A DNA stretch of 64,000 nucleotides from a virus (taxonomy: Duplodnaviria > Heunggongvirae > Uroviricota > Caudoviricetes), in IMG/VR virus record IMGVR_UViG_3300025765_000001; one strand, given 5' to 3'. A program made the position numbers and the translations under genes. Below the pieces are notes generated by a model. The model did not search any database and was not told the origin of the DNA. It saw nothing but the letters and a program-made list of their open reading frames with translations. The stretch's first letter is position 1. Each line of letters starts with the position of its first letter. This document shows, one piece after another, positions 11,735 to 47,179 of the stretch.

Positions 11735-13785
11735 TTAGATACCTCGCTATATATCCTTCTATATTCCATGCAATTCTCCTTGATGTTGTAGACCTTCTGC
11801 CTCATCAGGTTCTCTTTGATCCGCTCTAGGCTGTCATCAACTCTGATTTGCCTGATGAGTTGTGCAATCTGGCCTACGTCCTTGTGGTCCACAAGATATC
11901 CTGTTTCCTCGTGAATCACCCTATCTTGAATCGCACCGACCTTGGTAGCGATTACCGGTATACCAAGTCCCTGGGCCTCCGTGAGTGTGAGACAAAAGGT
12001 TTCATCCCACAGAGATAGAATCACCAATACATCGATATCGTGCAGCATTCCAGGAAGGGTCTGCAATGTATATTTACCCTTTCGCTGCACGTTAAGTATA
12101 TCAATTGCCTTCTCGTATGTAGGATTTATATTCCCAATGATGCAGAAACTATATTCATCCTCGTAGCTGAACAGGTTGGCTAGTGTTAGGAATATGTCGG
12201 CCCCTTTCTGCATACAGAAGTTTCCAAGGAAACCGATTTTGAGTTTGTTCAAATTCCTGTTTCTGCATACTTTGCACCCTACATCAACGCCATGTGGCAC
12301 TACTTTGACTTTTTCGGTTTCCCCGAAGGCTTCGTTGATTTTGTTAGCCACGAATTGAGATGGTACAATTATGGTGTCAGCGGCCTCGATGATCTGAGGA
12401 ACTAGTTTCGCCCGCTCAGTCATGTAGTTTTGAGGATCGGTTCCCATTTTGGCCGACATGCAGTTCAAACACGTCAGATTTTGAGGCTGACAGTGGGTTT
12501 GGCCGCACATTCTGTTGTCTGGAAGGAGTAGGTTGTACTCAGGGCACAGCAGGAAGTAATCATGAATGGTCAGAATGACCTTCGAGCCATACTGCTTGGC
12601 GAGCAGGGGTAACATGAGCGATCCCCAACCAGCCAAATGCTGGAAATGGACTATATCGTAATCGCCTTGTAGTAGCTGGCCGAATTTTTCTTCTATATGC
12701 TGATTTCGGATGTCCACACCATTGTCGAGGACGTGCAGGTGGTGTTGTGGTTTTCTGAGGCGGATGACCCTGGGGTTCCCAGGTTGGTCCTCTAAGTCTA
12801 GGTATTCTCTCACTCTGGTGGAGGGGTAAGCCACAGTGAAATCAAACAAGTCCTTGTTGTGATCGATTACCTGTTTTGTGTGTAGTTCGGTTCCAGCGGC
12901 TACCTCATAGGAATGGATCACCTGTAGAATTCGTTTCTTGCCGTTAGAGTTCATTCTGGAAATGATCTTTTCTTGTATGCCACGAAGCGGGTTGTTGTTG
13001 CAAAAATCATGAATTATGAAATCATACTGCGGCCACTTTTCAAGTAGTTTGGCATGGTTCTGTTTTCGTAGTAGAGTGGAGTTGATCGAGAACGACTTTT
13101 CGCCGTGATGAAATACAAAACCATTGTCGCAGCACACGATCCGGTAGCCTTCTTGGTTTGCTCGCATGGCGTAATCGCACTCATCGCTGTATCCCATGCC
13201 GAAGCGTTCGTCTATCAAGCCAACTTTGTCTATTACCTCACGCTTGATAGCCATGCAGAAGCCGACGCCGGTTGGTACATCTGGGTAGAATCGCTGTGAC
13301 GTTTTGTGTATCAGGTGTGCGAATTCGTCAACGGTCCAGCCTTCGGGAAGGTCGTTGGGCTGGTTGAAGTACGGCACTGAGAAGATTGTTGCGTTGTTTG
13401 AGAGAGGCGTGCAGATGCTGATTTTTTCCGAACTCCAAAGGCACTCATCTATAGTTTCGAGCCAACGCCGGGGAAGCAACGTGTCGGAATTCACGAGAAC
13501 CACGTCATTCCGTGACAGCATCATGCCCATGTTCACGGTTTTGATGAATCCGAGGTTCCGTTCGTTTTTCAGATGAATGTAGTTTTTTTGGCTGAAGGAA
13601 TTCAGGATAGACTCGATGTCTGGGTCGGTACTGCAATCATCAATCGCAATAATTCTGTGCTTTTGGTCTGTGTTCAATAAGATGGTTCTTAGGCATTCTT
13701 TTACGTACTCGCTCGCATTGTAGATCGGGATGATGATGTCATAGATTCTATTCATAGCTCCTCGTTTGCTGATGAGACTCGCCAT
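11731..13785 (-). CDS. bifunctional glycosyltransferase (N-terminal GT2 domain + C-terminal GT4/GT1 domain)
   Basis: GT2 signature 'IIIPIYNASEYVKECLRTIL...IIAIDDCSTD'. C-terminal GT4 motif 'EAQGLGIPVIATKVGAIQDRVIHEETGYLV'. Confidence 0.7.
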   Translation of the reverse strand: MASLISKRGAMNRIYDIIIPIYNASEYVKECLRTILLNTDQKHRIIAIDDCSTDPDIESILNSFSQKNYIHLKNERNLGFIKTVNMGMMLSRNDVVLVNSDTLLPRRWLETIDECLWSSEKISICTPLSNNATIFSVPYFNQPNDLPEGWTVDEFAHLIHKTSQRFYPDVPTGVGFCMAIKREVIDKVGLIDERFGMGYSDECDYAMRANQEGYRIVCCDNGFVFHHGEKSFSINSTLLRKQNHAKLLEKWPQYDFIIHDFCNNNPLRGIQEKIISRMNSNGKKRILQVIHSYEVAAGTELHTKQVIDHNKDLFDFTVAYPSTRVREYLDLEDQPGNPRVIRLRKPQHHLHVLDNGVDIRNQHIEEKFGQLLQGDYDIVHFQHLAGWGSLMLPLLAKQYGSKVILTIHDYFLLCPEYNLLLPDNRMCGQTHCQPQNLTCLNCMSAKMGTDPQNYMTERAKLVPQIIEAADTIIVPSQFVANKINEAFGETEKVKVVPHGVDVGCKVCRNRNLNKLKIGFLGNFCMQKGADIFLTLANLFSYEDEYSFCIIGNINPTYEKAIDILNVQRKGKYTLQTLPGMLHDIDVLVILSLWDETFCLTLTEAQGLGIPVIATKVGAIQDRVIHEETGYLVDHKDVGQIAQLIRQIRVDDSLERIKENLMRQKVYNIKENCMEYRRIYSEVSK

Positions 13786-14253
13786 ATTTAGGTTTTTCGT
13801 CTAGGAGATTTGCCCCTCGTATAGAAAAAAGGCTCACTTGGTACGAGACTTGCTCAATTTTCAATTGGTGTTTGTTTACCCTGTTTCGATGACGCCAGAT
13901 AGAGGAGAACTCTAATGGCAACTATGGTTGCGAATCCCAGGAGGCGAAGTGAGGCACTTAGAACCGTCAAGGAGAAGCTGGCGGTTCTACAAGGCATGTC
14001 AGACGAGATCGGTTCCAAGATGGTCATCGAGACCGCCATCGATGCCGTCGAGTCCACTATGGAAGCCGCCCTCTGCTGATGGGCAGTCGGCGTAACACGC
14101 ATGGGAAATGAACTGTACAGCCGTCCCTGTGCAGACCATTCCTCGACCAGTCTGGCAACTTGACAACCAACCGGGACAAAGTGACGTGATCGAAAAAAGG
14201 GGTTGACTCGGTTGGCCTCTCTTGCTAGAATGTTTCTCGTCAGTTGATTGCTA

Positions 14254-14345
14254 GGCAGGTAGCTTAGTAGGCCGCAAGGTAGCTTGGAGTAGAGCGTCAG
14301 CCTAATAAGTTGAAGGTTGCTGGTGCGAATCCAGTCCTGCCCACT
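14254..14345 (+). ncRNA. tRNA-like element with ~20-nt D-loop insertion/duplication, non-canonical T-loop (TGCGAAT), anticodon loop CTAATAA (AAU?)
   Basis: Acceptor AGGCAGG / CCTGCCC. D-stem GCTT..GAGC encloses a 26-nt loop containing a duplicated TAGCTT. Anticodon stem TCAGC / GTTGA. Confidence 0.3.
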
Positions 14346-14526
14346 TAAACGAGAACTGCCGTGGCCGCAAGGCGGAAAGGCAACCCTGGGAGCGAGTCTC
14401 CCGCTAACATCCAACCGGACTCATAAGGGGTAGCGGGGAATCCGGTTCACGGCGGAAAAATTCCGAAAAATGTCCTTTTTTGGGATTGCTCGTCTATATA
14501 TTGGACAGGCAGAAATGCCGACATGA

Positions 14527-14600
14527 CGTGGGGTGGTGTAATTGGTCAACATACGAGGCTCATAACCTCGTGATTCCAGGTTCGAGTCCTGGCCCCGCAA
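14527..14600 (+). tRNA. tRNA-fMet (CAT), initiator type
   Basis: Acceptor CGTGGGG / CCCCGCA with a C1:A72 mismatch, as in E. coli tRNAfMet. Anticodon loop CTCATAA. T-arm CCAGG TTCGAGT CCTGG. Confidence 0.7.
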
Positions 14601-14876
14601 CTCAAGGACGCTAACAGCATTTTCCTACTACGGCAAAGAGATGGCGTCCGGGGGACAAGCGGTTAAGTCGCTAGTCTCATAAACAACACCGGGCCGTGAG
14701 GCCCACAATGGAGGCAAGAAGAATACAATGGCTGTCCTGATTCAGAGACATGGGAAACAATGGTGCCGCTGCCATAAGCAGTGGAATAACCAGATTACGT
14801 ACCTCATGTCCTGATCGAGCAGCCAAAAGCCGGTTCAGGGCGTGAGTCCTGGGCCGGTGTCATAGGGAACTTGTAG

Positions 14877-14920
14877 AACCCCTCGATACCACTCAGCGGT
14901 ATCGAGGGGTTTCTTTTTTC
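14877..14920 (+). terminator. rho-independent terminator
   Basis: 13-bp stem AACCCCTCGATACC / GTATCGAGGGGTT followed by TCTTTTTTC. Confidence 0.7.
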
Positions 14921-15266
14921 TACGAGGTATCCCTATGAGGATAGTGTCGGAGTTCAGGGACTACTACGATTGCATCCAGGCAATGGGCCAAGATCGGTCG
15001 TTAGTCTATGTGAAAATATCGAAGGAAGTGGATTGTAGTTACCGAGGCGTGAATTCGCCGGTTTACCCCTTCCCGACGTTCGGAGGTTACTATAGGTTTC
15101 CTTACGATGACTTTTCGATCCCTACATGGCGTTCCAAGAGATTTCGATGTATCTGGGAGGATTAGCAGTTCCTCAGAAACCTATGCCGAAAATCTCCGAC
15201 GAAGTGATGGCAGAGATCAAGGGATTCGATAAATGGAGCTTCCGAAAAGAACCCAGCAGGAAATGA

Positions 15267-15337
15267 TGTGGCGTCAGATAATGGTAATCGGCCTGCCTGT
15301 TAAACAGGAGATGTTGGTTCGATCCCAGCCGCCACAG
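15267..15337 (+). tRNA. tRNA-Asn (GTT)
   Basis: Acceptor TGTGGCG / CGCCACA. Anticodon loop CTGTTAA. T-arm GTTGG TTCGATC CCAGC. Confidence 0.55.
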
Positions 15338-15343
15338 CTTTAT

Positions 15344-15428
15344 TCCTGGGTAGCCTAAAGGTAAGGCAGCAGTCTGTTAAACTGCCGTGGCGAAAGTCCG
15401 AATGTTGGTTCGAGTCCAACCCCAGGAG
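15344..15428 (+). tRNA. type II (long variable arm, Tyr/Ser-like body) tRNA with anticodon GTT, discriminator G
   Basis: 85 nt. Acceptor TCCTGGG / CCCAGGA. 3-bp D-stem GCC / GGC. Anticodon arm GCAGT CTGTTAA ACTGC (perfect 5-bp stem, 7-nt loop). 18-nt variable arm. T-arm GTTGG TTCGAGT CCAAC. Architecture parallels bacterial tRNA-Tyr, but the anticodon is GUU. Confidence 0.45.
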
Positions 15429-15499
15429 CTTGATAGGTTAGTTCTTTGACAATTAGGATCGCCAAAACTATAGTCGCCGCAAGGCAGTGGTGACTATAT

Positions 15500-15581
15500 G
15501 GGGTCGTGGCAGAATGGTTATGCACCCGGCTTTTAACCGGAGCGAGAAATCGCAATGAGGGTTCGATTCCTTCTGGCCCCA
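15500..15581 (+). tRNA. type II (Leu-like body) tRNA with anticodon TTT, discriminator A
   Basis: 82 nt. Acceptor GGGGTCG / TGGCCCC. 3-bp D-stem GCA / TGC. Anticodon arm CCCGG CTTTTAA CCGGA. Variable-arm hairpin GCGA GAAA TCGC. T-arm GAGGG TTCGATT CCTTC. Confidence 0.45.
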
Positions 15582-15585
15582 CTTT

Positions 15586-15657
15586 CGGCTCATGTTGTAG
15601 TGGTCTGCGAACCGCTCTGATAAGGCGGGAGTCCTGGGCCGATTCCAGGTGAGCCGA
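15586..15657 (+). tRNA. tRNA-Ile (GAT)-like, degenerate copy (non-canonical T-loop GCCGATT)
   Basis: Anticodon arm CCGCT CTGATAA GGCGG identical to the downstream Ile tRNA. Acceptor CGGCTCA / TGAGCCG. Confidence 0.4.
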
Positions 15658-15665
15658 CTCCGAAT

Positions 15666-15737
15666 GGCCTGGTCGTTCAATGGTTAGGACGCCGCTCTGA
15701 TAAGGCGGTAATGAAGGTTCGACTCCTTCCTGGGCTA
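15666..15737 (+). tRNA. tRNA-Ile (GAT)
   Basis: Acceptor GGCCTGG / CTGGGCT (three G-U pairs). D-stem GTTC / GGAC. Loop CTGATAA. T-arm GAAGG TTCGACT CCTTC. Confidence 0.55.
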
Positions 15738-15744
15738 CTAGATG

Positions 15745-16190
15745 GGCCTGTGTTGTAATGGCAGCGAGCCGGTCGGGCTTATGAGAGAATGTTGGAAGAA
15801 GCGAAAAAGTGTGTCCTGCTTTGTAACTGATGTCACACAGAGGTCACGCACGGCGTAGCGACACTGAACATTGGCGACACATGCCATCCGAACTAGTGTA
15901 GGGGAGTTGTGTGGCCTCTGGGGAGAGGCCCAGACCTTGAGATATGGTGGTCGTGGTGTTGGTTTCGCACGCTTGGCTGTGAACCAAGAGGAATGGGTTC
16001 GATCCCCGTCGATCACCCTTGTAGTCGATGTGGTGTAATTGGCAGCATGGCCGTTGAGCGGAATTAGGTGCAGGTTCGAGTCCTGTCGCCCGGTCTAGAC
16101 AACCAAAACCGGGTGTGATGTAATGGCAGCACGGCCCCAGCGAAGGGGAAACAGGTCTGGGTTTGAGTCTCAGCGATCGAAGATACGTGA
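15745..16190 (+). repeat. family of degenerate tRNA-like repeats sharing TG-NTGT-AAT(T)GGCAGC 5' halves (one canonical tRNA-His embedded at 15947-16017)
   Basis: 5' halves at 15745, 16027 and 16109 share acceptor + D-arm sequence but lack a canonical anticodon arm (e.g. CCCC AGCGAA GGGG). The last has T-loop TTTGAGT. Confidence 0.35.
15947..16017 (+). tRNA. tRNA-His (GTG) with encoded G-1
   Basis: G-1 at 15946 pairs with discriminator C. Acceptor GTGGTCG / CGATCAC. Anticodon arm CTTGG CTGTGAA CCAAG. T-arm ATGGG TTCGATC CCCGT. Confidence 0.65.
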
Positions 16191-16310
16191 GATAGATTGT
16201 GGCGTCGTCTAACACCCCGCCAGAATAGTCGAACAACTATGGGGTAAAAAGGATATCGGGGGCCAGATTAGCCCGGAGATGCAGGTGAAACTCCTGTCCG
16301 TCACAGCCAT

Positions 16311-16383
16311 TGAGGGGTCGTCTAATTGGTAGGACGCTCGGCTTTGAACCGGGAAAATGAAGGTTCGACTCCTTCCCCCTCAG
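16311..16383 (+). tRNA. tRNA-Gln (TTG)
   Basis: Acceptor TGAGGGG / CCCCTCA. Anticodon arm CTCGG CTTTGAA CCGGG. T-arm GAAGG TTCGACT CCTTC. Confidence 0.6.
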
Positions 16384-16384
16384 C

Positions 16385-16470
16385 TAGACAGAATGGTGCA
16401 GACACCAGTTCCTTCGACCAAGTAGGTCAACATCCTGTTAAGATGTCCATTGTGGGTGTCAAATCCCACA
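16385..16470 (+). ncRNA. tRNA-like element with third CTGTTAA anticodon loop and aberrant 8-nt T-loop (TGTCAAAT)
   Basis: Anticodon arm ACATC CTGTTAA GATGT. T-stem GTGGG / CCCAC. Acceptor pairing imperfect. Confidence 0.3.
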
Positions 16471-16507
16471 GGAACAACCTGATGTCGAATATCTCTTCTG
16501 TCTTTAC

Positions 16508-16580
16508 GGCCCCAAGGTGTTAGTGGCAGCATTCCACGCTCTTAACGTGCGGGGTCCGGGTTCAAGTCCCGGTGGGGCCA
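16508..16580 (+). tRNA. tRNA-Lys (CTT)
   Basis: Acceptor GGCCCCA / TGGGGCC. D-stem GTGT / GCAT. Loop CTCTTAA. T-arm CCGGG TTCAAGT CCCGG. Confidence 0.55.
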
Positions 16581-16671
16581 CTTTGCTCTAGAAAAACCTA
16601 GAGCCATCATCTATACTACTAGCACTACGACCAGTGGCTCGACCTGTTCCGCAAGAAGGAATGGATCGAGA

Positions 16672-17133
16672 ATGAATGCAACGAAACTGCTGTCCATAGG
16701 AAAGACAGCCGAAAGATTGGGAGTGCATGTTGATACTCTCAGGGAATGGGACAAAGACGGCAAACTGACCCCGGTGAAGACCCCCGGCAACCATCGCCGC
16801 TACCGCATCGAAGACATCGAAGCGTTCTGCGGCAACATGGTTGAGAAGAAGGATGACGCAAAGGCAGTCAGAGTCGCCCAAGAAAAACCTCAAAATAAAT
16901 TCAAGGATGTTTTGCATTTTGCCGATGATTACATTATAATACTTTGTCTGACTGTGGATACTCTACGATTTTGGCGGGACAAAGACGTATTTGACCTGAT
17001 TGGCACAATCGGAGGACACAACATTGATGAAGTTTTAGGTGTAATTAGTGAAAAGTCAAGTAAGGTGGACAGAGGACGAGGTAAATCTTCTCAAAGAACA
17101 CGGAGCGACAAAACTCCTGCACGAACTGGTTGA
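16672..17133 (+). pseudogene. tnpA: IS607 TnpA N-terminal MerR-like HTH domain (first part of a split tnpA; read-through into the inserted sequence)
   Basis: 'LSIGKTAERLGVHVDTLREWDKDGKLTPVKTPGNHRRYRIEDIE' matches the IS607 TnpA N-terminal HTH. Sequence after ~16870 continues into the inserted element. Confidence 0.5.
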
Positions 17134-18013
17134 GCTACTACCGAGACATACGGCAATGGGTATCTCGATCAAGAGAAAGCGGCTCGGCATAGAACTGCCA
17201 GATGAATACCTGTCAAGGCAAGGAGCATACGGCAGGTCATTTGTAAATAATGACAACTTGTGTAAGACGGATCACAGCCTCACGCTAAACGATCTTGATG
17301 ATACGACCAAACAGGTTCTTCTTGGCAGCGTCTTAGGCGACGGCAGTATCAAGAAGAATGGAAGCGGTGGGAAGATGAGGGGCAAGTGGAGTCAAAGGAA
17401 CTTCATCTTCTACGACATGCACAGAAGTCCACAATTTGACTACACGGACTGGAAGGCATCCAAACTCCAAACATTCTTAGCCAAGTCAAGCCGCAACGAT
17501 GAGAAGAACAGGTCAGAGACTTGGACGGTATCGCATCCGATCTTCACCATGTTGCGTGATAAGTTTTATCCGGCGATGACGAAGTGTAACAAGTGCATGA
17601 TCCCCGCCGACATCGTTGAGCAGATGGATGAGTTGGCGTTGTTGGTGTGGTACTTTGATGACGGCTACATCGGTGTGCGTCCTGATGGATTTGACACCAA
17701 AGGTCATCACAAACGACCGCAACCAAGAATTGCGGCAAAAGGTTGGAACTACGAAGACCTGTGCAGAGCCGCCGAGATACTGAACAAGAACTTGGGGTTG
17801 CATCTGTACGTTCTTACATTCAAGCACAGGGACGGTGTTGGTAAAGAAGTCAAGATACCAGCAAAAGACAGGGATTACTTGTTTCAGCTTTGGCAGCAGT
17901 TGGCGAAACAACACGGCGTACCTGAGTGTATGATGTACAAACTGAACCTGCACGAATGGAAAGATGTACTTGTGTATAAGCAGCCACGAACAGAAGCAGA
18001 AGGGCGACCTTGA
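17048..18013 (+). CDS. LAGLIDADG-family homing endonuclease (two LAGLIDADG motifs)
   Basis: 'LLGSVLGDGSIKKNGSG' and 'LLVWYFDDGYIGVRPDG' motifs. No terminal His-Asn and not in frame with the flanking tnpA pieces, so probably intron-encoded or free-standing rather than an intein. Confidence 0.55.
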   Translation: MKSQVRWTEDEVNLLKEHGATKLLHELVELLPRHTAMGISIKRKRLGIELPDEYLSRQGAYGRSFVNNDNLCKTDHSLTLNDLDDTTKQVLLGSVLGDGSIKKNGSGGKMRGKWSQRNFIFYDMHRSPQFDYTDWKASKLQTFLAKSSRNDEKNRSETWTVSHPIFTMLRDKFYPAMTKCNKCMIPADIVEQMDELALLVWYFDDGYIGVRPDGFDTKGHHKRPQPRIAAKGWNYEDLCRAAEILNKNLGLHLYVLTFKHRDGVGKEVKIPAKDRDYLFQLWQQLAKQHGVPECMMYKLNLHEWKDVLVYKQPRTEAEGRP

Positions 18014-18405
18014 GCGACAAAATGGGCGGGTTCTCGCCTACTGCGTCAAGAAACAGTACCAAGTAGTAAAATCCTACGAGGAAGTCGGCTCTGGCATGTG
18101 CGACACCCGACCAAAACTTCATCAAATCTTCAAGTTGGTTGAAGAGAAGCAGGTGGATAAGGTCATCGTAGAACACAAGGACCGGCTGACCCGGTTCAAC
18201 TTCAACTTTCTGGCAGCGTTCTTCGCCAGTCATGGTGTTGAGGTTGAATGGACAGAGGAAGTGCTTGGGAACAAGCGGTACGAGGACGAGTTAGTGGAAG
18301 ACATGCTCACGCTCATGTCCTCGTTCTCAAACAAAATCTACGGCAAACGATCCGCAGAGAACCGCAAGAAGAAAAAGTTAGAGAAGTTGGCGGCAAAGGA
18401 GCAAG
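17964..18405 (+). CDS. tnpA: IS607 TnpA serine-recombinase catalytic domain (second part of split tnpA; 3' end approximate)
   Basis: 'CISSHEQKQKGDLERQ...VDKVIVEHKDRLTRFNFNFL...SNKIYGKRS' matches the IS607 TnpA catalytic core. The ORF runs on in frame to 19088, overlapping tnpB, so the true stop is uncertain. Confidence 0.5.
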
Positions 18406-19545
18406 GTGAAGGTACAGAGGGGCTTCAAGACGGAGATCAGACCAAGCGACAAGCAAAAGACGCTGCTGCTCAAGAATGCAGGAGCGGCACGCTGGGCGTA
18501 CAACTACGGTCTGAGCCAGAAGAAGATCGCTCTGGAAGCCAAGACGAAGATACCCAACGCCATCGAACTGCACCGTCGCTTGAACGAGTTGAAGAAGACG
18601 GAAATACCGTGGGCTTACGAGTGCAGCAAGTGCAGTTTTCAAGAAGCACTCAGAAACCTCGACAGGGCTTTCAGCAACTTCTGGACAGCACGGAAAACCA
18701 AGAGACGCATGGGCTTCCCGAAGTTCAAGAGCAAGAAGAACGGCATCGGCGGCTTCCGGCTCACAGGGACGATCATCGTGTCCAGCGACCGCATCCAGTT
18801 GCCCCGTCTCGGCACGATCCGGCTCAAGGAGAAGAACTACCTGCCGACCGACGCCAAGATACTCAACGCCACGGTAACGGAGAGGGCTGGCAGGTGGTTC
18901 GTGAGCGTACTGGTGGAGATGGAACAGCCGGAATACACCGGCATCAAGGACAAGAAGGACGTGGTGGGCGTGGACTTGGGCATCAAGACGCTGGCGACCG
19001 TGAGCGACGGCACGGTGTACGAGAACCCGAAACCACTCAAGACCCGATTACGCAAACTACGGCGGCTACAACGAGCAGTCGCCCGTAAGGTCAAGGGCAG
19101 TAGAAACCGCAGGAAGGCGGCAGACCGTGTGGCTCGTTTGTACCTGAAAGTGAGCAACATCCGTAAGGACACCTTGCACAAGATGACGACATGCTTGACG
19201 AAAACCAAGTCGGCGGTCGGTATCGAGGACTTGAACGTGTCGGGGATGCTCAGGAACAGGTGCTTGGCACGGTCTATCGCTGATCTCGGTCTTGGTGAAT
19301 GGCGGCGGCAGATGACCTATAAGGGCGTCTGGTACAAGTGCCACATCGCCGTGGCGGACAGGTTCTTCGCCTCCAGCAAGACGTGTAGCGTCTGCGGGGA
19401 GATCAACGAGAACCTGACGCTGGCTGACCGAGAGTGGGTCTGTGAAGGTTGTGGGACGCACCATGACCGGGACTTCAACGCAAGCAGTAATTTGGAATAC
19501 GTTGCCGCCAGTTCGACGGAAACGATAAACGCCTGTGTAGTGTGA
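18406..19545 (+). CDS. tnpB: IS605/IS607-family TnpB (OrfB) RNA-guided-nuclease-like protein
   Basis: RuvC-like core and C-terminal zinc finger 'CSVCGE...CEGCGTHHDRDFNASSNL'. Length 379 aa. Confidence 0.8.
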   Translation: MKVQRGFKTEIRPSDKQKTLLLKNAGAARWAYNYGLSQKKIALEAKTKIPNAIELHRRLNELKKTEIPWAYECSKCSFQEALRNLDRAFSNFWTARKTKRRMGFPKFKSKKNGIGGFRLTGTIIVSSDRIQLPRLGTIRLKEKNYLPTDAKILNATVTERAGRWFVSVLVEMEQPEYTGIKDKKDVVGVDLGIKTLATVSDGTVYENPKPLKTRLRKLRRLQRAVARKVKGSRNRRKAADRVARLYLKVSNIRKDTLHKMTTCLTKTKSAVGIEDLNVSGMLRNRCLARSIADLGLGEWRRQMTYKGVWYKCHIAVADRFFASSKTCSVCGEINENLTLADREWVCEGCGTHHDRDFNASSNLEYVAASSTETINACVV

Positions 19546-19690
19546 TGGCTCTGGCTTGAGGGCGTACCTCAAGTGAAACTGTTTCGTATGCAGCAGGAAT
19601 GGAACAGGAAATCGGGGTCATTTTGTGCCTTCCAGATTTCCATAGGTTTTCAGGAACGGTTCGACTCCCTACGGTCCCACTAGATGATAG

Positions 19691-19993
19691 GTGAATGAAA
19701 TGAGTGAAGTACAAGACATATCGGTGAAGGCGAAAGGGGTCGAAGTCACCGATAGGCCGGAAGTTTTGGAGTGGCACAGTCAATTTTATTTTGTCGCTGC
19801 CGCTCGAAAAGATGGATCGGCACCCGGCCTTGAGAAAGCTGTAGAGGCGAAGTTTTTCCTCGATCCAGACGAAGCCGAGATGTTCCGGCGAACCGTCAGC
19901 GAGGAATACGATTACCAATACAGAGTGTTTGAAGGCGTTGCGGTGATTCAGCGGTTCCAGAACCGAGGAGACACAAGCAAGGTAGAAGAGTGA
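19691..19993 (+). CDS. hypothetical protein
   Basis: 100-aa ORF downstream of tnpB. Confidence 0.4.
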   Translation: MNEMSEVQDISVKAKGVEVTDRPEVLEWHSQFYFVAAARKDGSAPGLEKAVEAKFFLDPDEAEMFRRTVSEEYDYQYRVFEGVAVIQRFQNRGDTSKVEE

Positions 19994-19997
19994 AGGA

Positions 19998-20068
19998 TGC
20001 CCTCTGGTGTAATGGCAGCACATCTGACTTTGGATCAGATAGTTCACGTTCGAGTTGTGGGAGGGCAG
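19998..20068 (+). tRNA. tRNA-Gln (TTG), second copy
   Basis: Acceptor TGCCCTC / GAGGGCA. D-stem GTGT / GCAC. Anticodon arm TCTGA CTTTGGA TCAGA. T-arm TCACG TTCGAGT TGTGG. Confidence 0.5.
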
Positions 20069-20207
20069 CTTGCAAAGAGCGGATAGTAACGATGGCATGG
20101 GTGAACTGTCACCAGATATTACTCCCAAAAGGCCCGCTCCGAGTCGGGGAAGTGGATTACCAGCCCTGGTGCCTTAGCCCCGATGGGTGTGACCGAGGGT
20201 AGATGCT

Positions 20208-20283
20208 GGGTATGCTAAACGGTGTTATAGTTGCCGGTTGTAGCCTCTATCCGGTTGTGTTGGTTCAACTCCAACCACGCCCA
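20208..20283 (+). ncRNA. tRNA-like element (good T-arm GTTGG TTCAACT CCAAC and acceptor-like ends; internal arms unresolved)
   Basis: 3' end CACGCCC-A. Interior contains CCGG...13 nt...CCGG rather than a canonical anticodon arm. Confidence 0.25.
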
Positions 20284-20366
20284 CTATGGAAATCTTTTTC
20301 GTCATTTGCGTAATTGGTTTGTTTTGTTGGATAGTTGTCGTTGCAGCCGAGATTTTGACATGAAAT

Positions 20367-20436
20367 GGCCCGTTCGCTGGATGCGGAGTCCGGTCTTCTA
20401 AACCAGACGGGAGAGGTTCGATTCCTCTACGGGCTA
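20367..20436 (+). tRNA. tRNA-Arg (TCT) with short D-arm (alternative 8-nt-loop reading possible)
   Basis: Acceptor GGCCCGT / ACGGGCT. Anticodon arm CCGGT CTTCTAA ACCAG (one mismatch). T-arm AGAGG TTCGATT CCTCT. Confidence 0.4.
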
Positions 20437-20625
20437 CTTGCGGGCCGTGAGTGTGACGGAAGCACGCAACGCTTCGGACGTTGAAGAAAGGGTTGGCGTG
20501 TCTGGGTCTGTTAGGTGTCATCATCTGGCAGGCTAATCACTGGTATCAGGCAAGGCACACGCTTTGCCCGACTAGCAACATGTACTGCTGTCCGAAATGC
20601 GGCTGGGACGCATATGTGTAGTTAT

Positions 20626-20696
20626 TGACCCCTAGTGTAACGGTAGCACAAGTGACTCTGGATCACTTAGTCAAGGTCCGAATCCTTGGGGGTCAG
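20626..20696 (+). tRNA. tRNA-Gln (CTG)
   Basis: Acceptor TGACCCC / GGGGTCA. Anticodon arm AGTGA CTCTGGA TCACT. T-arm CAAGG TCCGAAT CCTTG. Confidence 0.5.
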
Positions 20697-20698
20697 CT

Positions 20699-20813
20699 TG
20701 GGACATAGTGTAAGCGAGAAGCTGTCGTTGTGTATGATTCTAGATGAAAGCAACGGCTGGTAGCACGAGTCTATACGAAGGGCTTAGTTTGGGTTCGAGT
20801 CCCAATGTCCCAA
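20699..20813 (+). ncRNA. 115-nt tRNA-like RNA: tRNA-Arg(ACG)-like frame with ~50-nt insertion in the D-loop
   Basis: Perfect acceptor TGGGACA / TGTCCCA. T-arm TTGGG TTCGAGT CCCAA. Anticodon arm AGTCT ATACGAA GGGCT. D-stem GTGT..GCAC encloses a 51-nt loop with internal hairpin GTCGTTG / CAACGGC. Confidence 0.35.
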
Positions 20814-20821
20814 CTTAGATG

Positions 20822-20893
20822 GTGTGGGTAGCTTAATGGCAAAGCATCTGCTTGTGAGGTAGAAAGATGCCGGTTCGAGTCCGGTCCCACACC
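20822..20893 (+). tRNA. tRNA-His (GTG), second copy, G-1 encoded
   Basis: G-1 at 20821, discriminator C. Acceptor GTGTGGG / CCCACAC. Anticodon arm TCTGC TTGTGAG GTAGA. T-arm GCCGG TTCGAGT CCGGT. Confidence 0.6.
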
Positions 20894-20896
20894 CTT

Positions 20897-21082
20897 ATGA
20901 AACTGCAAGAAATGAGACATCTATTTAAGGAGTTCGGAAGGACGCTCGGCAAACATCCTGACGAGTGGTGGGGTTTTGAGCAGGCGGTATGGCATGAATT
21001 GTCGAAAAAGTTTACCATATGGTTAAGCAAGAACCGGGACGAGCTAGAAAAGCTCCGAGAGAAGGACAAGTACGTTGTATAA
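20897..21082 (+). CDS. small hypothetical protein
   Basis: Starts immediately after the tRNA-His. 61 aa from the internal Met. Confidence 0.3.
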   Translation: MKLQEMRHLFKEFGRTLGKHPDEWWGFEQAVWHELSKKFTIWLSKNRDELEKLREKDKYVV

Positions 21083-21154
21083 GGCCATGTAGCCAAGTGG
21101 TAAGGCATGGGTCTGCAAAATCCATCATCGTGGGTTCGACCCCCACCGTGGTTT
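21083..21154 (+). tRNA. tRNA-Cys (GCA)
   Basis: Acceptor GGCCATG / CGTGGTT (G-U rich). D-stem GCC / GGC. Anticodon arm TGGGT CTGCAAA ATCCA. T-arm GTGGG TTCGACC CCCAC. Confidence 0.5.
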
Positions 21155-21215
21155 CTAGAGACGCTAACAGCATTTTCTAACAACCTTCCAAGTTGACGAA
21201 ATAGCGTCTCGTTTT

Positions 21216-21294
21216 GTCGATGGAGGCGAAAGCATCGGGGCGGTGCATTGGTCTGCAAAACCAACGCCAAGTGGTTCAACTCTACCCATCGACT
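21216..21294 (+). tRNA. tRNA-Cys (GCA), second copy with enlarged D-arm (79 nt)
   Basis: Acceptor GTCGATG / CATCGAC. Anticodon arm TTGGT CTGCAAA ACCAA. About 6 extra nt in the D region. Confidence 0.4.
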
Positions 21295-21540
21295 TTTCAT
21301 TTTAGGAGACCGATCATGTGGGGCGTAAACAAGAAGGCGATCCTAGTTGAGACAAGCGATTACTACAGCGAGGACGATACGCCTTCGGTCTGTACTACGG
21401 TGATCGAGTCGCTATCCGATTTGGCGACCTGCCTGGGTAATGACTTGGCGGGAGATCATCATGCGATGGAGGCCCTGCTGAAGAACTAGCACTTCCTCAA
21501 GGCCCTGGACCAACGTGGTTTTCGTGACGTAGAGAAGATC

Positions 21541-21849
21541 GTGTCTGCCGTTGAGAAGGTGAAGGCCGGAACTAGGTTCTTCATGTACAACGGCGAGAGC
21601 TACCCTTCGATTCGTGAGATCGACATCTTCAACAAGGACCGCTATGTTGCTGAACAGCTTGCGGACGTGGAGAAGTCCTCGCTCAAGGAGATCAATGGGA
21701 CGGCATATCGATACGTGCTGGCCGCTCGCAAGAGAATCGATGCTGCGAGCAAGGCAAGAGCAGCCAAGGCGAAGAATTGCCAAAAGAAGCTTAAGAAAAA
21801 GGAACTAGAGAAGGCCAGAGAGTTATTGAAGGAAGCTGGTGAGTTATGA
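21541..21849 (+). CDS. hypothetical protein (Lys-rich C-terminus)
   Basis: 102-aa ORF. Confidence 0.4.
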   Translation: MSAVEKVKAGTRFFMYNGESYPSIREIDIFNKDRYVAEQLADVEKSSLKEINGTAYRYVLAARKRIDAASKARAAKAKNCQKKLKKKELEKARELLKEAGEL

Positions 21850-22391
21850 ATGACAAGTTGACTATGACCGAACTAGAACAGAAAGAGGCCAGACTTCAGG
21901 AGCTATACAACCTATCTGACAAAATCAACGAAGAAGTGACCGAACTCAATCAACAGCTTTACAGCCTAAGATTGAAGAGGTTGCTTGAGACCGATTTGCT
22001 GAGTCGCATTGATTGGCTCTATACTTACGATCTAGCTCTCAGAGGCGAAGAGGCTGCTGGGATTGGCGATTTGCTCAAGCCGTGGGGCTACCACGACCGA
22101 TTTGAGGGCGAAGAGTGGAGTCTGAGTTTTGACGATGGCGAGATCAGGCTGGGATTCGGCGAGGCAGAATTCATGGCTGACTTCATCAAGGCCCAGAAAC
22201 TCAAGGTGAATTTTAAGGGTTTGCAGAGCGAACTGAAGCAGAAGGAGACCGAGTACCATAAGGTGAAGGAACTTGCCGAAACGCTCGGAATACTCGATGG
22301 CAAAGAAGATAACGAAGCAGCAGGAAATTCGCCACGAGGAGCAGTACGTCGAGTTCCTGCGGAAGCGTCTTGGGTCATAGATAAATCATGA
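21846..22391 (+). CDS. hypothetical coiled-coil protein
   Basis: 181-aa ORF overlapping its neighbours by 4 nt on each side. Confidence 0.45.
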   Translation: MNDKLTMTELEQKEARLQELYNLSDKINEEVTELNQQLYSLRLKRLLETDLLSRIDWLYTYDLALRGEEAAGIGDLLKPWGYHDRFEGEEWSLSFDDGEIRLGFGEAEFMADFIKAQKLKVNFKGLQSELKQKETEYHKVKELAETLGILDGKEDNEAAGNSPRGAVRRVPAEASWVIDKS

Positions 22392-40762: not shown

Positions 40763-40860
40763 GCGGGATGGTGCAGGATACGGTTCCTTCGCCAAATGGT
40801 ATGGCACTAGCTGTCAAAGCTGGAGTTGTGGGTTCAATTCCCACAGGTTCAAATCCCGTA
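40763..40860 (+). ncRNA. ~95-nt tRNA-like element with two consecutive T-arm-like hairpins
   Basis: GTGGG TTCAATT CCCAC followed by ACAGG TTCAAAT CCCGT. Ends GCGGGAT...ATCCCGT could pair. Confidence 0.25.
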
Positions 40861-44912: not shown

Positions 44913-44993
44913 GGGGCCTTGGTCTAACGGTAAGGCGTCGTGTTAAAGTCACAGTGCCGCACGAAGATGTCGGTTCGATTCCGGCAGGTTCCA
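44913..44993 (+). ncRNA. 81-nt tRNA-like RNA (type II length) with anticodon region expanded to a 5-bp stem enclosing 17 nt
   Basis: Acceptor GGGGCCT / AGGTTCC (two G-U). T-arm GTCGG TTCGATT CCGGC. TCGTG...17 nt...CACGA in place of a 7-nt anticodon loop. Confidence 0.3.
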
Positions 44994-45070: not shown

Positions 45071-47179
45071 ATGTCAGTACCAGAGATGTTGGAAAGACGG
45101 GTGTGGCCCATCGAGAAAGCCCTGCAACGCATCCTTGTTGGGCAGAGGAACGTCATCCGCCGTGTGACTATGGCGTTATTCGCTGTCGGACAGCGGGACT
45201 TCTATCCAGATGGTACACGATTTTTAGGAACAGGCCACGTTCTATGCGAAGGCGGTGTAGGAACAGGAAAATGTCTTGGTAAAGGCACCCCCGTCTTGAT
45301 GTTCGACGGAACTATAATTCCCGTTGAATCCGTTAAGACTGGAGACCTGTTGATGGGACCAGATTCTCTGCCCAGGAAGGTTATTGCTCTCGGACACGGT
45401 TTTGGAGAGCTATATCGGGTGATACCAAAAAAGGGCGATTCGTATGTTGTCAATGACGAGCATATCCTGTCATTTAAGATGACTAGTCGTGGTCGAAATA
45501 GGCAGGGCAATTTTCCACGTTCTGGCGACAATGTTCCTGGCATGATTTATAACATGTCAGTCAAAGAATACTTGGGAAGGTCAGAGCGATTCAAGAGTCA
45601 TGCCAAGGGATATAGAGTTGGCATCGAGTTTGATGAGCGAATTGTGCCACTGGACCCGTATTTTTTTGGCGTGTGGTTGGGAGATGGGATCAGTCGCACC
45701 GCACAGGTTTGCAATACGGATAACGAAATTATTGCGTACATTCGTAAGATGGCAAACAAGTACAGGCTGCGGTTCAACACTTACACAGCAAGCGGGAAAG
45801 CTCCGATTCACTCGTTGTGGGGGAAAAAATTCCATCCTAATGCGATATTGAGTGCTTTACGTGAAATGAACGTATTGCAAAACAAACATGTTCCACAAAT
45901 ATACAAAGCAAATTCACGACGAGTGAGATTGCAAATTTTGGCCGGACTGATGGACACAGATGGCAGTCTGTCGGCTGGTTGCTATGACTTCGTAAACAAG
46001 TCAAAACAACTTGCCGATGATGTGGTTTATTTGGCGAGGTCTCTAGGATTCGCCGCTTATGTCAAACCATGCACCAAGGTTTGCAAAAACAACGGTAAAA
46101 AGGGTCGATATTACCGAGTATCGATTTCTGGAAATTTATCGGAAGTTCCGGTTCGCATTGCCAAGAAAAAGGCTTCTCTTCGTCGGCAGAAGAAGAATGT
46201 GTTGGTGACTGGAATCAAAGTAGAACCAGAGGGCTATGGAGAATACTTTGGTTTCGAGATTGAGGGACCAGACAGGCTGTTTCTCCTGGGAGATTTCACG
46301 GTCACACACAATACCGTTCTCTGTAAAGCACTTTCTAGGTTGCTGGCTGGCAACTCCAAACGAGTATCGGGAATGCCCGACGCACTTGCCAGCGATATTA
46401 CTGGTTGCGAGATCATCTTGCTGACCGGCGATACCAAGACGGTCCAGGGGCCGCTATTCTGCAACGTTATGCTGGCTGACGAGATCAACCGTTTCCCGCC
46501 CAAAGCCCAAAATGCGTTCATCGAAGCACTGGCTGAAGGCTGTGTCACCATCGCAAATGAAACTATTCGTTTGAAGCAGCCTTTCTTCTGCCTCGCTACA
46601 CAGAACCCGACTGAGCAAAAAGGCACGAGTCGTCTACAAGAGGCTCTGTCAGACCGGTTTATGTTCAAACTCGTCATGCGTGAGACTACAGAGCAGGAGA
46701 AGATTGATATCGCAAAGCGGACACACCACTTCGATGTCACGAACCTGAATCCTGTAATTACGACAGACGAAGTATACGAAGCTAGAGAGTATTTCTTCAA
46801 CAATACTCACGTCAGCGATGAGGTACGTCGCTACGCTGCTCGCTTGCTTCGTGCAATCAACCATCCAGCGGAATACAAACTTCTTGAGAAGGAACGGGCC
46901 TTGCTTGCGGGCGATAACATCTTCAAGCAAAAGCCAGCGGTCAACGACCGTGCCATGCTGCATATGGAAGGTGCGGCGATGATGGAGGCGGTTATGAGTG
47001 GGAGGGACTACGTGATCCCCGCCGACGTTGCTGCTGTTGCGGCAGATGCCCTCCGTGCCCGTCTTCTCCTGTCTGAGTCTAGTTTGCACCTTCTGGCGGA
47101 ACTACACCCAGGCAAAACCGAAACCGAGTTGGTGGACTATTTCATAGACGAAACTCTGTCTAGGGTGCGACACACTTGA
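45071..47179 (+). CDS. MoxR-family AAA+ ATPase containing a LAGLIDADG intein inserted in the Walker A P-loop
   Basis: Extein 'HVLCEGGVGTGK|...|TVLCKALSRLLAG' reconstitutes 'GVGTGKT'. Downstream MoxR motifs 'LLADEINRFPPKAQNAFIEALAEG...ATQNPTEQKGTSRLQEALSDRF'. Confidence 0.8.
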   Translation: MSVPEMLERRVWPIEKALQRILVGQRNVIRRVTMALFAVGQRDFYPDGTRFLGTGHVLCEGGVGTGKCLGKGTPVLMFDGTIIPVESVKTGDLLMGPDSLPRKVIALGHGFGELYRVIPKKGDSYVVNDEHILSFKMTSRGRNRQGNFPRSGDNVPGMIYNMSVKEYLGRSERFKSHAKGYRVGIEFDERIVPLDPYFFGVWLGDGISRTAQVCNTDNEIIAYIRKMANKYRLRFNTYTASGKAPIHSLWGKKFHPNAILSALREMNVLQNKHVPQIYKANSRRVRLQILAGLMDTDGSLSAGCYDFVNKSKQLADDVVYLARSLGFAAYVKPCTKVCKNNGKKGRYYRVSISGNLSEVPVRIAKKKASLRRQKKNVLVTGIKVEPEGYGEYFGFEIEGPDRLFLLGDFTVTHNTVLCKALSRLLAGNSKRVSGMPDALASDITGCEIILLTGDTKTVQGPLFCNVMLADEINRFPPKAQNAFIEALAEGCVTIANETIRLKQPFFCLATQNPTEQKGTSRLQEALSDRFMFKLVMRETTEQEKIDIAKRTHHFDVTNLNPVITTDEVYEAREYFFNNTHVSDEVRRYAARLLRAINHPAEYKLLEKERALLAGDNIFKQKPAVNDRAMLHMEGAAMMEAVMSGRDYVIPADVAAVAADALRARLLLSESSLHLLAELHPGKTETELVDYFIDETLSRVRHT
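45272..46312 (+). other. intein (347 aa) with LAGLIDADG homing-endonuclease domain
   Basis: Begins 'CLGKGTPVLMFDG' (block A) directly after GTGK. Contains 'FFGVWLGDGIS' and 'ILAGLMDTDGS'. Ends 'FTVTHN' followed by extein Thr (+1). Confidence 0.75.

Follow-up and report, generated by a model that had tools for sequence, protein, structure and literature searches.

Homing endonuclease genes (HEGs) invade conserved host genes by way of introns, by way of inteins, or bare, as in the T4-like phages. The free-standing HEG mobE splits the nrdA gene of Aeromonas phage Aeh1 (PMC3045599; reviewed in PMC2988022), and some fractured genes carry split inteins that flank a free-standing HEG (PMC2677866). 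Members of the IS605 and IS607 families that contain a group I intron are known as IStrons, in which the ribozyme spans the element and removes it from host transcripts (bioRxiv 10.1101/2023.11.20.567912). Described here is an IS607-family element in a 64,000-nucleotide (nt) stretch of viral DNA (Caudoviricetes; IMG/VR record IMGVR_UViG_3300025765_000001; referred to throughout as the window), the transposase gene of which, tnpA, is split at its active-site codons by a LAGLIDADG endonuclease gene. The arrangement is most likely a free-standing homing-endonuclease cassette that is nested in tnpA, targets the active-site codons and is immune through replacement of its target, with tnpA itself probably dead in this copy.

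The locus resembles mobE in nrdA in that an endonuclease gene lies without intron or intein inside a conserved coding region of a phage genome, presumably spreads by break repair, and leaves its host gene as two open reading frames (ORFs) with insert-derived tails, here an 85-residue tail on the ORF for the helix-turn-helix (HTH) domain and a 5-residue head on that for the catalytic domain. Unlike nrdA, the host gene is the transposase of another mobile element rather than an essential phage enzyme, so that there is no need for the split product to remain functional; the nuclease is of the LAGLIDADG and not the HNH or GIY-YIG type, and one clade has the upstream fragment joined to it in frame. 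As in canonical IS607 elements, the TnpA halves match the family model end to end, tnpB follows directly and there is a conserved right-end block, but tnpA is broken at the active site, has Cys in place of Arg and lacks its stop codon, and the left end is probably truncated. The locus shares with the IStrons the combination of an IS607-family element with a second selfish device, but there is no ribozyme and the second element parasitises the transposase gene itself. It shares with the fractured split-intein genes a host gene in two pieces with an HEG between them, but split-intein halves are absent, the tail of the upstream piece resembles an HTH, and the insert contributes only five codons ahead of the catalytic fragment. 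What is new is that the host gene is another mobile element's transposase, invaded at its active site, that the association of HEG and tnpA recurs across diverged IS607 clades, and that the nuclease has captured the transposase HTH in frame. Full-text literature searches on IS607 or TnpB together with LAGLIDADG led only to general reviews and the IStron work, in none of which this arrangement is described.

A tnpA gene split by a LAGLIDADG endonuclease gene

The four ORFs of the element (Table 1) match Pfam families well over the curated cut-offs: MerR on the HTH ORF (E = 1.2e-14, residues 8–44; MerR/HTH_17 spans residues 8–52), LAGLIDADG_2 on the endonuclease ORF (3e-16; 60.3 bits against a cut-off of 25), Resolvase on the catalytic ORF (4.4e-19, residues 3–139) and OrfB_IS605/TnpB on the last (9e-33). 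On the NCBIfam IS607-transposase model NF033518 the HTH ORF occupies profile positions 2–59 and the catalytic ORF positions 59–187 (133.9 bits against a cut-off of 110), so that they are complementary halves of one TnpA with nothing duplicated. The HTH fragment is 85% identical to residues 1–68 of the intact TnpA P0001 and the catalytic fragment 94% identical to its residues 74–203. An earlier note, made from the sequence alone, had described tnpA as divided between these domains by a double-motif LAGLIDADG gene, with ~1.1 kb between them and the three pieces in three frames; the Pfam and NF033518 matches agree with this division, the frames are 1, 2 and 0, and comparison with the DNA of the intact locus L002 refines the distance to 1,104 nt. 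The orphan 'MerR/excisionase' and 'resolvase' ORFs that source gene calls place beside a LAGLIDADG gene are the halves of one tnpA. Both TnpA domains are present, but in different frames rather than in the single polypeptide of an IS607 TnpA. Positions 13156–22013 are 100% identical in JGI 3300009594 (103,649 bp) and ENA ERZ27245623 (463,644 bp), two independent assemblies from separate projects, and the frame changes are therefore real and not assembly errors. A DNA search with 16500–19700 against 50,697 deposited phage genomes gave no match.

Table 1. Features of the interrupted IS607-family element and its flanks, in window coordinates (frame is coordinate mod 3)
Feature	Coordinates	Strand	Frame	Content or basis
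IS607-family element remnant (tnpA fragments, nested HEG cassette, tnpB, right-end block)	16625..19664	+		DNA homology with L002, L093 and L004
tnpA 5′ fragment: MerR-type HTH and linker, TnpA residues 1–68, ending ...KKDDAKAVRV	16672..16875	+		
Inserted homing-endonuclease cassette, 1,104 nt by blastn block ends	16875..17978	+		Replaces 19 nt (codons CTYSRV)
Cassette-encoded C-terminal extension of HTH ORF	16876..17133	+		In frame with HTH
ORF, 153 amino acids (aa)	16672–17133	+	1	HTH and extension
LAGLIDADG homing endonuclease gene, 321-aa ORF, GTG start	17048–18013	+	2	Pfam LAGLIDADG_2
tnpA 3′ fragment: serine-recombinase catalytic domain, from SSHEQ codons	17979..18394	+		Pfam Resolvase
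ORF, 374 aa	17964–19088	+	0	Catalytic domain
tnpB ORF, 379 aa	18406–19545	+	1	Apparently intact
Conserved non-coding block at and after tnpB stop, to right boundary of element	19527..19664	+		Identity to L004 and L093
tRNA-Lys(CTT)	16508–16581	+		Left neighbour of element
tRNA-Gln(TTG)	19998–20069	+		Right neighbour of element

A search with the rejoined (conceptual) TnpA as query returns 1,612 homologues, the best of which are uninterrupted proteins of 220–250 aa with 86–91% identity, several of them encoded on contigs of 0.1–0.7 Mb. These intact relatives read ...KKDDxKAVRV[V/C/A]TYSRVSSHEQKQKGDLERQ... (i.e. AVRV[V/C/A]TYSRVSSHEQ), and protein alignment with P0001–P0011 places the left junction of the window where ...KKDDAKAVRV is followed by AQEKPQ..., and the right junction where ...NGKMYLCI is followed by SSHEQKQKGDLERQ.... 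The DNA of L002 aligns to 16625–16874 (89% nt identity) and to 17979–18394 with only 19 nt of L002 (465–483) between the two blocks; the uninterrupted tnpA around the insertion position in L002 or L093 is GTCAGAGTT..AGCCGAGTCAGTAGCCA, and the L002 allele at the site reads ...GTCAGAGTTTGCACATACAGCCGAGTCAGTAGCCATGAGCAG.... This comparison with intact IS607 copies, which the earlier note had proposed as a check, places both junctions and establishes the replacement of 19 nt by 1,104 nt. The replaced codons include that of the Arg two residues before the nucleophile Ser, and this Arg (Arg8 in resolvase numbering) is one of the catalytic residues in the active site of serine recombinases. The insert supplies the ATG at 17964 and the four codons after it (MYLCI-SSHEQ...); the note had the catalytic domain begin at 17964, where the ORF does open, but tnpA homology resumes only at 17979. 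In a shuffle test, similarity between the last 40 nt of the insert and the intact pre-Ser codons is absent, and the idea that its last ~25 nt are TYSRV codons altered by mutation and by the loss of 4 nt, as the scar of a LAGLIDADG overhang, was rejected, the local alignments being no better than shuffles. As read from these comparisons, the cassette consists of ~170 nt encoding a relic HTH-like peptide followed by the 321-aa I-SceI-like nuclease gene, and lies at the codons of the first beta-strand and active site (..TYSRV/SS..).

Coding content of the insert and the intron and intein readings

The endonuclease gene has a Shine-Dalgarno-like AGGTG at 17037–17041, 6 nt upstream of its GTG, and overlaps its neighbours on both sides, with its start inside the end of the HTH ORF and its last 35 nt within the tnpA catalytic fragment. 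Its product contains the motifs LLGSVLGDGSI (17318–17350) and LLVWYFDDGYI (17639–17671), and retains 38 of the 38 columns that are invariant in an 18-member alignment, including both LAGLIDADG acidic residues. A profile of the HEG family matches I-SceI (1r7m) and 6x1j, another intron-encoded enzyme, among PDB entries at E-values of 4e-7 to 4e-6, with the match covering the whole core (HEG residues 79–297). By its two motifs, its acidic residues and a profile score above the cut-off it is a LAGLIDADG homing endonuclease (PF03161, I-SceI-like), and like the I-SceI type (PDB 1r7m, 6x1j) it carries both motifs in one chain. The similarity is nevertheless remote (E ~1e-6), and the enzyme differs from that type in not being intron-encoded and in having an extra N-terminal module of ~75 residues (WTxxE...LLPRHT...KRxRLG), present in 1–3 copies in homologues. 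Most of the 27 homologues detected are ~280–345 aa long, four (395–486 aa) have extra N-terminal sequence, and most begin MK[ST]QVxWT exactly at the position of the window's GTG. The window and L004 enzymes are 81% identical with a ratio of nonsynonymous to synonymous substitution rates (dN/dS) of 0.11; the gene is under purifying selection and presumably active.

The N-terminal module (17048–17280, residues 1–78) follows the pattern WTxxE..L....LLPRHT..I..KR.RLG over ~45–75 residues. It is single here and occurs as two or three tandem copies in homologues (P0138, P0146), has no Pfam match, and is possibly a DNA-binding repeat. A scan for promoters and terminators gave counts at chance level.

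The 5′ part of the cassette (16876 to ~17070) continues the HTH reading frame, and gives that ORF its 85-residue insert-derived tail. This extension is kept as protein in the window, L004, L008, L013 and L105, with many third-position changes and a dN/dS of 0.4–0.5. Its core (residues 90–117; nt 16939–17022, ILCLTVDTLRFWRDKDVFDLIGTIGGHN) aligns to TnpA residues 15–42 or 15–59, with a BLASTP E-value of 2e-5 for the L004 extension against P0002 residues 15–59, and a TnpA hidden Markov model (HMM) finds a second domain in the HTH-extension ORF (9.0 bits, i-E 2.8e-4); on these two matches the core is taken as a degenerate second copy of the TnpA HTH. Two further proposals were rejected: the TnpA HMM does not support the first ~20 extension residues as a relic of helix A of the catalytic domain, and the low synonymous divergence of the extension (dS 0.44) does not mark an RNA element, as a sliding-window comparison finds comparable peaks within the HEG and folding gives a null z-score. 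Neither the extension peptides nor the N-terminal module of the HEG match anything in Pfam at E≤10, and an AlphaFold2 model of the 153-aa ORF made with no alignment is uninterpretable (mean predicted local distance difference test score, pLDDT, 36.7).

The earlier note had regarded a group I intron carrying an HEG as the likelier explanation. LAGLIDADG genes are indeed often intron-borne and the closest solved relatives, such as I-SceI, are intron-encoded; the insertion lies in a highly conserved active-site region, and a 16875/17979 junction would be in frame. A group I (or group II) intron that bears the LAGLIDADG ORF and is spliced from the tnpA mRNA is nonetheless highly improbable. The search with intron models that the note suggested, run with Rfam 15 on 16400–20000 at E≤10 with permissive filters, matched only the neighbouring tRNA and no intron, and no Rfam intron family, group I included, is found at gathering thresholds across the 64-kb window. 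The insert is protein-coding throughout with conservation at the amino-acid level, including the last 100 nt where P7–P9 would lie, and has no non-coding stretch that could hold a ribozyme core; the HEG ORF extends as far as the 3′ junction, and its C-terminal region up to a CMxYK motif is kept in homologues outside tnpA (L007). Folding of the first 200 nt of the insert is no stronger than that of shuffled sequence (z = −0.24). Because the (C)TYSRV codons are absent from the flanks, splicing could not restore tnpA: joined exons would be short of the conserved Tyr, and those of L004 of the Arg as well. HEGs homologous to this one also stand by themselves, with unrelated genes on either side (L007), and in a second clade, described below, HTH and HEG share a reading frame and the catalytic domain after them has a start codon of its own.

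An intein that carried a LAGLIDADG domain, entered in frame ahead of the nucleophile Ser and later decayed through frameshifts is extremely improbable. Its +1 residue would be Ser, a whole number of codons separates 16876 from the TGT at 17965, and the segment CLTVDTL in the extension superficially resembles intein block A. This last was rejected as a block A, since the alignment of the segment to the TnpA HTH is significant and there is no further intein block. As the earlier note had observed, there is no His-Asn terminus, which holds for the 3′ junction in any frame, and blocks F and G, which it named as evidence that would overturn its view, were not found; no Hint or intein Pfam family matches the product of any frame. 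The nuclease is of the LAGLIDADG_2/I-SceI type with homologues that mostly start at their own MK[ST]QVxWT and are not embedded in a host protein, the pieces lie in three frames, and diverged copies as well as both assemblies show the frames arranged in this way. A genuine intein elsewhere in the window served as a positive control and was readily detected: it lies in a MoxR-like AAA_3 ATPase ORF (45071–47179, 702 aa), with Hom_end_hint, LAGLIDADG_3 and Hom_end matches between residues ~68 and ~355, before the ATPase core. The intron and intein readings are essentially excluded.

Recurrence of the cassette and mosaic divergence of its loci

The order HTH, HEG, catalytic domain is found in many environmental genomes and in at least five other lineages, and tnpA is always broken between residues ~64–70 and ~73–80 of TnpA. 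Clade A has the layout of the window, with an extension and the HEG in the +1 frame. Its members are L001 (catalytic domain and 3′ part of the HEG, with a junction in the frame seen in the window), L004/5/6 (HEG 81% identical, a duplication of the 3′ exon, a second LAGLIDADG gene and tnpB in remnants), L008–12 and L013/L098 (HTH, extension and HEG with no catalytic domain, and an intact tnpB 1.4–3 kb downstream), L105 (HTH, extension and HEG) and L106 (a catalytic-domain remnant of ~35 codons). The catalytic domain of HEG-bearing loci forms a decay series from intact-looking (window, L001) through disrupted (L004, L110, L115) and ~35 codons (L106) to absent (L008, L013). In L004 (6930–7400), two copies of a 48-nt piece of the catalytic exon (SSHEQKAKDDLERQNG) flank a ~420-nt filler with a reverse-strand ORF, which looks like imprecise repair at the same site and would fit break repair.

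In clade B (L107, L108, L110–112, L114, L115, L120, L122, L132 and L135), the HEG is 33–37% identical to that of the window and the HTH is fused in frame to it (...DLDAYMGVEKEKQEKLTVKKQVAWTQ...), as a single 336-aa ORF with HTH_17 and LAGLIDADG_2 matches; in L107 the fusion lies at 1134–2141. The catalytic ORF begins MLARCSTAKQ with an ATG that overlaps the HEG stop, and keeps the catalytic Arg. This layout appears to explain the clade-A extension as the relic of an HTH that was once fused to the nuclease, with the whole unit then entering another tnpA. Uninterrupted clade-B alleles (...KLTVIYARCSTAKQ..., 205 aa) are very abundant, with clusters of 200–400 member sequences, so that HEG-bearing alleles are a minority; two entries related to these intact alleles are named IS607 family transposase from Bacteroidales in their source annotation. 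Recurrence spans several diverged huge-phage lineages and an abundant IS607 clade, and the loci offer a natural system for the study of hyper-parasitism among mobile elements, and of how LAGLIDADG enzymes gain accessory DNA-binding domains by in-frame capture of a host HTH.

Several minor features accompany these loci. L004, where tnpB is in fragments, has an unrelated 465-aa LAGLIDADG gene with HTH_23 downstream of the catalytic domain (7904–9301), and a different 650-aa LAGLIDADG gene (5702–7654) lies between the intact tnpA and tnpB of L093, a 686-kb contig; IS607 elements of these phages are repeatedly colonised by LAGLIDADG genes. In the HEG of L008–L012 a stop codon in frame takes the place of the conserved Trp codon of the N-terminal module (~5917–6000 in L008); the gene is therefore called from an internal start (281 aa), and may be a decaying copy. 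A DNA adenine-methyltransferase-like ORF lies between HEG and catalytic domain in clade-B loci L115 (~1870–2320; Pfam Dam at 3e-27) and L122 (~740–1190; an NPPF motif and a weak N6_Mtase match). L042 (IMG/VR) was rejected as a further case, being an intact IS607 merely near an unrelated LAGLIDADG gene.

Table 2. Pairwise divergence of tnpA domains and HEGs
Pair	Region	Identity	dS	dN/dS
Window vs L002 (HEG-less)	HTH	90% nt	0.36	0.142
Window vs L002 (HEG-less)	Catalytic domain	88% nt (99% aa)	0.98	0.014
Window vs L004 (HEG-bearing)	HTH	77% nt	1.31	0.095
Window vs L001 (HEG-bearing)	Catalytic domain	83% nt	1.6	0.026
L001 vs L004	HEG (99 codons)	80% nt	1.35	0.071
L001 vs L004	Catalytic domain	91% nt	0.54	0.035
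L107 vs L108	HEG	96% nt	0.10	0.230
L107 vs L108	Catalytic domain	81% nt	1.64	0.045
L107 vs L115	HTH	94% nt	0.31	0.023
L107 vs L115	HEG	75% nt	2.27	0.062
Clade B pairs	Catalytic domain	76–88% nt	0.7–2.3	0.03–0.07

Divergence differs between the parts of a locus (Table 2). The HEGs of L107 and L108 are nearly identical and their catalytic domains are not, the HTH regions of L107 and L115 are close and their HEGs are not, and the clade-A flanks of the window are nearest to the HEG-less L002 and not to the HEG-bearing L004. Such mosaic divergence in clade B and incongruence in clade A is the pattern that would be expected if break-induced gene conversion carried a cassette from one tnpA allele to another, diverged one. 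At the near-invariant positions of the catalytic domain, HEG-bearing copies show essentially no departures, the sole exception in the window being Arg to Cys, and catalytic domains beside an HEG would look freshly selected because the cassette moved into intact, selected alleles.

The favoured sequence of events can be set out as follows. The nuclease would recognise the conserved active-site-coding sequence in uninterrupted tnpA alleles, a target expected to be repeated within and between huge-phage and bacterial genomes. It would cut tnpA there, and repair from an occupied allele would copy the cassette in (intronless homing), whereas the occupied allele would be immune by virtue of the 19 nt of target that are replaced. 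Expression would come from the tnpA transcript, with translation from the nuclease's own Shine-Dalgarno sequence at a start overlapping the end of the truncated HTH ORF. Neither RNA nor protein splicing would take place, and tnpA would be left as two ORFs, the 153-aa HTH and extension and the catalytic domain from the insert-derived ATG.

The persistent pairing of HTH and HEG raises a different prospect, that of a domesticated or retargeted HTH-nuclease module with a role beyond selfish homing. Such a nuclease may be tethered by the TnpA HTH to IS607 ends, as a protein-guided counterpart of TnpB-driven retention, or may be a phage weapon that cuts IS607-bearing competitors. The HTH always stays next to the HEG, including in loci without a catalytic domain (L008, L013, L105), it is fused in frame in clade B, and other LAGLIDADG genes are found between tnpA and tnpB in L093 and L004. 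Retention of the upstream exon is, however, expected for any HEG that relies on a host promoter and flanking homology, nothing observed links the nuclease to IS ends, and other members of the HEG family occur in unrelated contexts; this role is improbable. A maintained hybrid, in which the TnpA HTH delivers the nuclease to IS607 DNA while the separately translated catalytic domain still works with it, is doubtful. Were it true, IS607 would possess either a second, RNA-independent homing drive beside TnpB-omega-RNA or a two-piece serine transposase.

State of the transposase and surroundings of the element

In the window, the Ser-Ser at 17979–17984 is kept and is preceded by MYLCI, so that the Y-x-R-V-S-S active-site motif is not preserved, with Cys in place of the near-invariant Arg. 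No stop codon closes the catalytic frame ahead of tnpB; it stays open to 19088 (374 codons) and runs over tnpB for 683 nt in another frame. A homologue of this ORF (P0116, 365 aa, 63% identical) has the same read-through; the region is strongly T-depleted with an AT skew of +0.3, and the long open frame may be a chance effect of the T depletion. Homology with related elements begins on the left only at 16625, 43 nt past tRNA-Lys, whereas L093, L004 and L002 share ~210 nt more upstream of the equivalent position, with a 65–76-aa ORF. The left end of the window's element is therefore probably truncated. The small upstream ORF (...TEFETADG...ELDETPTVEEFQEIYD...; L093 4829–5032, L004 5459–5656, L002 93–323, L013 4426–4644) precedes and overlaps tnpA and has no Pfam match, and the window keeps only its last ~16 codons (16625–16672).

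tnpB carries the RuvC motifs VGVDLGIK (18964–18987), GIEDLN (19219–19236) and HDRDFNAS (19462–19485) and a zinc finger (CSVCG...CEGCG), with further matches to Cas12f1-like_TNB and HTH_OrfB_IS605 in Pfam and to the NCBIfam model guided_TnpB (304.9 bits against a cut-off of 100). The right-end block is 76–81% identical in nt to its equivalents in L004 and L093; homology of the three elements on this side ends at ...CAGGAACGGTT (19661–19664), after which the sequences diverge. By analogy with IS607/TnpB biology (bioRxiv 10.1101/2023.11.20.567912), the block is presumed to contain the omega-RNA scaffold and the right end.

With its catalytic Arg changed to Cys, its tnpA stop missing and its left end apparently truncated, the element is probably transposition-dead, no longer able to transpose by itself. 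Its tnpB and right-end block are retained, apparently intact. The earlier note's other suggestion, a nested mobile element that killed the transposase, stands as regards the nested element; killing is likely for this copy on account of the Arg-to-Cys change and truncated left end but is not proven, as the catalytic domain shows no other decay.

Several observations weigh against an inactivating homing cassette. Its target site is placed from the insertion position alone, and the conserved extension peptide is without a demonstrated role. The catalytic domain beside the HEG lacks decay (dN/dS 0.014–0.043, one violated invariant position), which also fits a functional split transposase. Clade-A HEGs are as diverged (dS ~1.2) as their flanks, and recent homing is directly shown only in clade B. 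Truncation of the left end is deduced from comparison with three related elements and not from a defined IS end sequence.

These points bear on whether the transposase is instead a functional gene in pieces, in which the HTH-extension protein and a separately translated catalytic domain would assemble into an active enzyme and the cassette-derived tails may serve as interaction domains. The very strong purifying selection on the catalytic domain of HEG-bearing copies, with near-invariant residues almost all kept, is consistent with this, as are the in-frame ATG 5 codons before SSHEQ in the window and L001, the conserved clade-B ATG overlapping the HEG stop with the catalytic Arg kept (MLARCST), the conservation across lineages of the extension on the HTH fragment, and the precedent of the mobE-split NrdA (PMC3045599). 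The window's own catalytic Arg is Cys, however, and the Shine-Dalgarno sequence before the ATG at 17964 is weak and too close (GGAAAG abutting the ATG). Several lineages have a catalytic domain that is disrupted, truncated or lost while HTH and HEG are kept, and the window's element seems to be without a left end. Recent homing into alleles that were intact and under selection also explains the strong conservation, and there is direct evidence of such homing in clade B. A functional split transposase is accordingly unlikely, if worth some weight, and the homing cassette is preferred; the loci are in either case a natural system for asking if a serine transposase tolerates a split between its DNA-binding and catalytic domains.

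The surroundings of the element point to a huge phage. The window holds 44 tRNA genes (14527–56266, all on the plus strand), a class I aminoacyl-tRNA synthetase, an NAD-dependent ligase, a Ro/TROVE protein and glycosyltransferases, and the tRNA array together with the aminoacyl-tRNA synthetase gene at 60382–63168 indicates a huge phage with its own translation gene set. The array includes a tRNA(tca) called selenocysteine (SeC) or suppressor-like (40782–40852), a tRNA-Phe(aaa) (44913–44993), and two unusually long tRNAs at 55798–55887 (Ile, tat, 90 nt) and 56170–56266 (97 nt, with a four-base 'anticodon' call). Near the array, a 641-aa ORF (2446–4371) has a TROVE (Ro60-like) domain.

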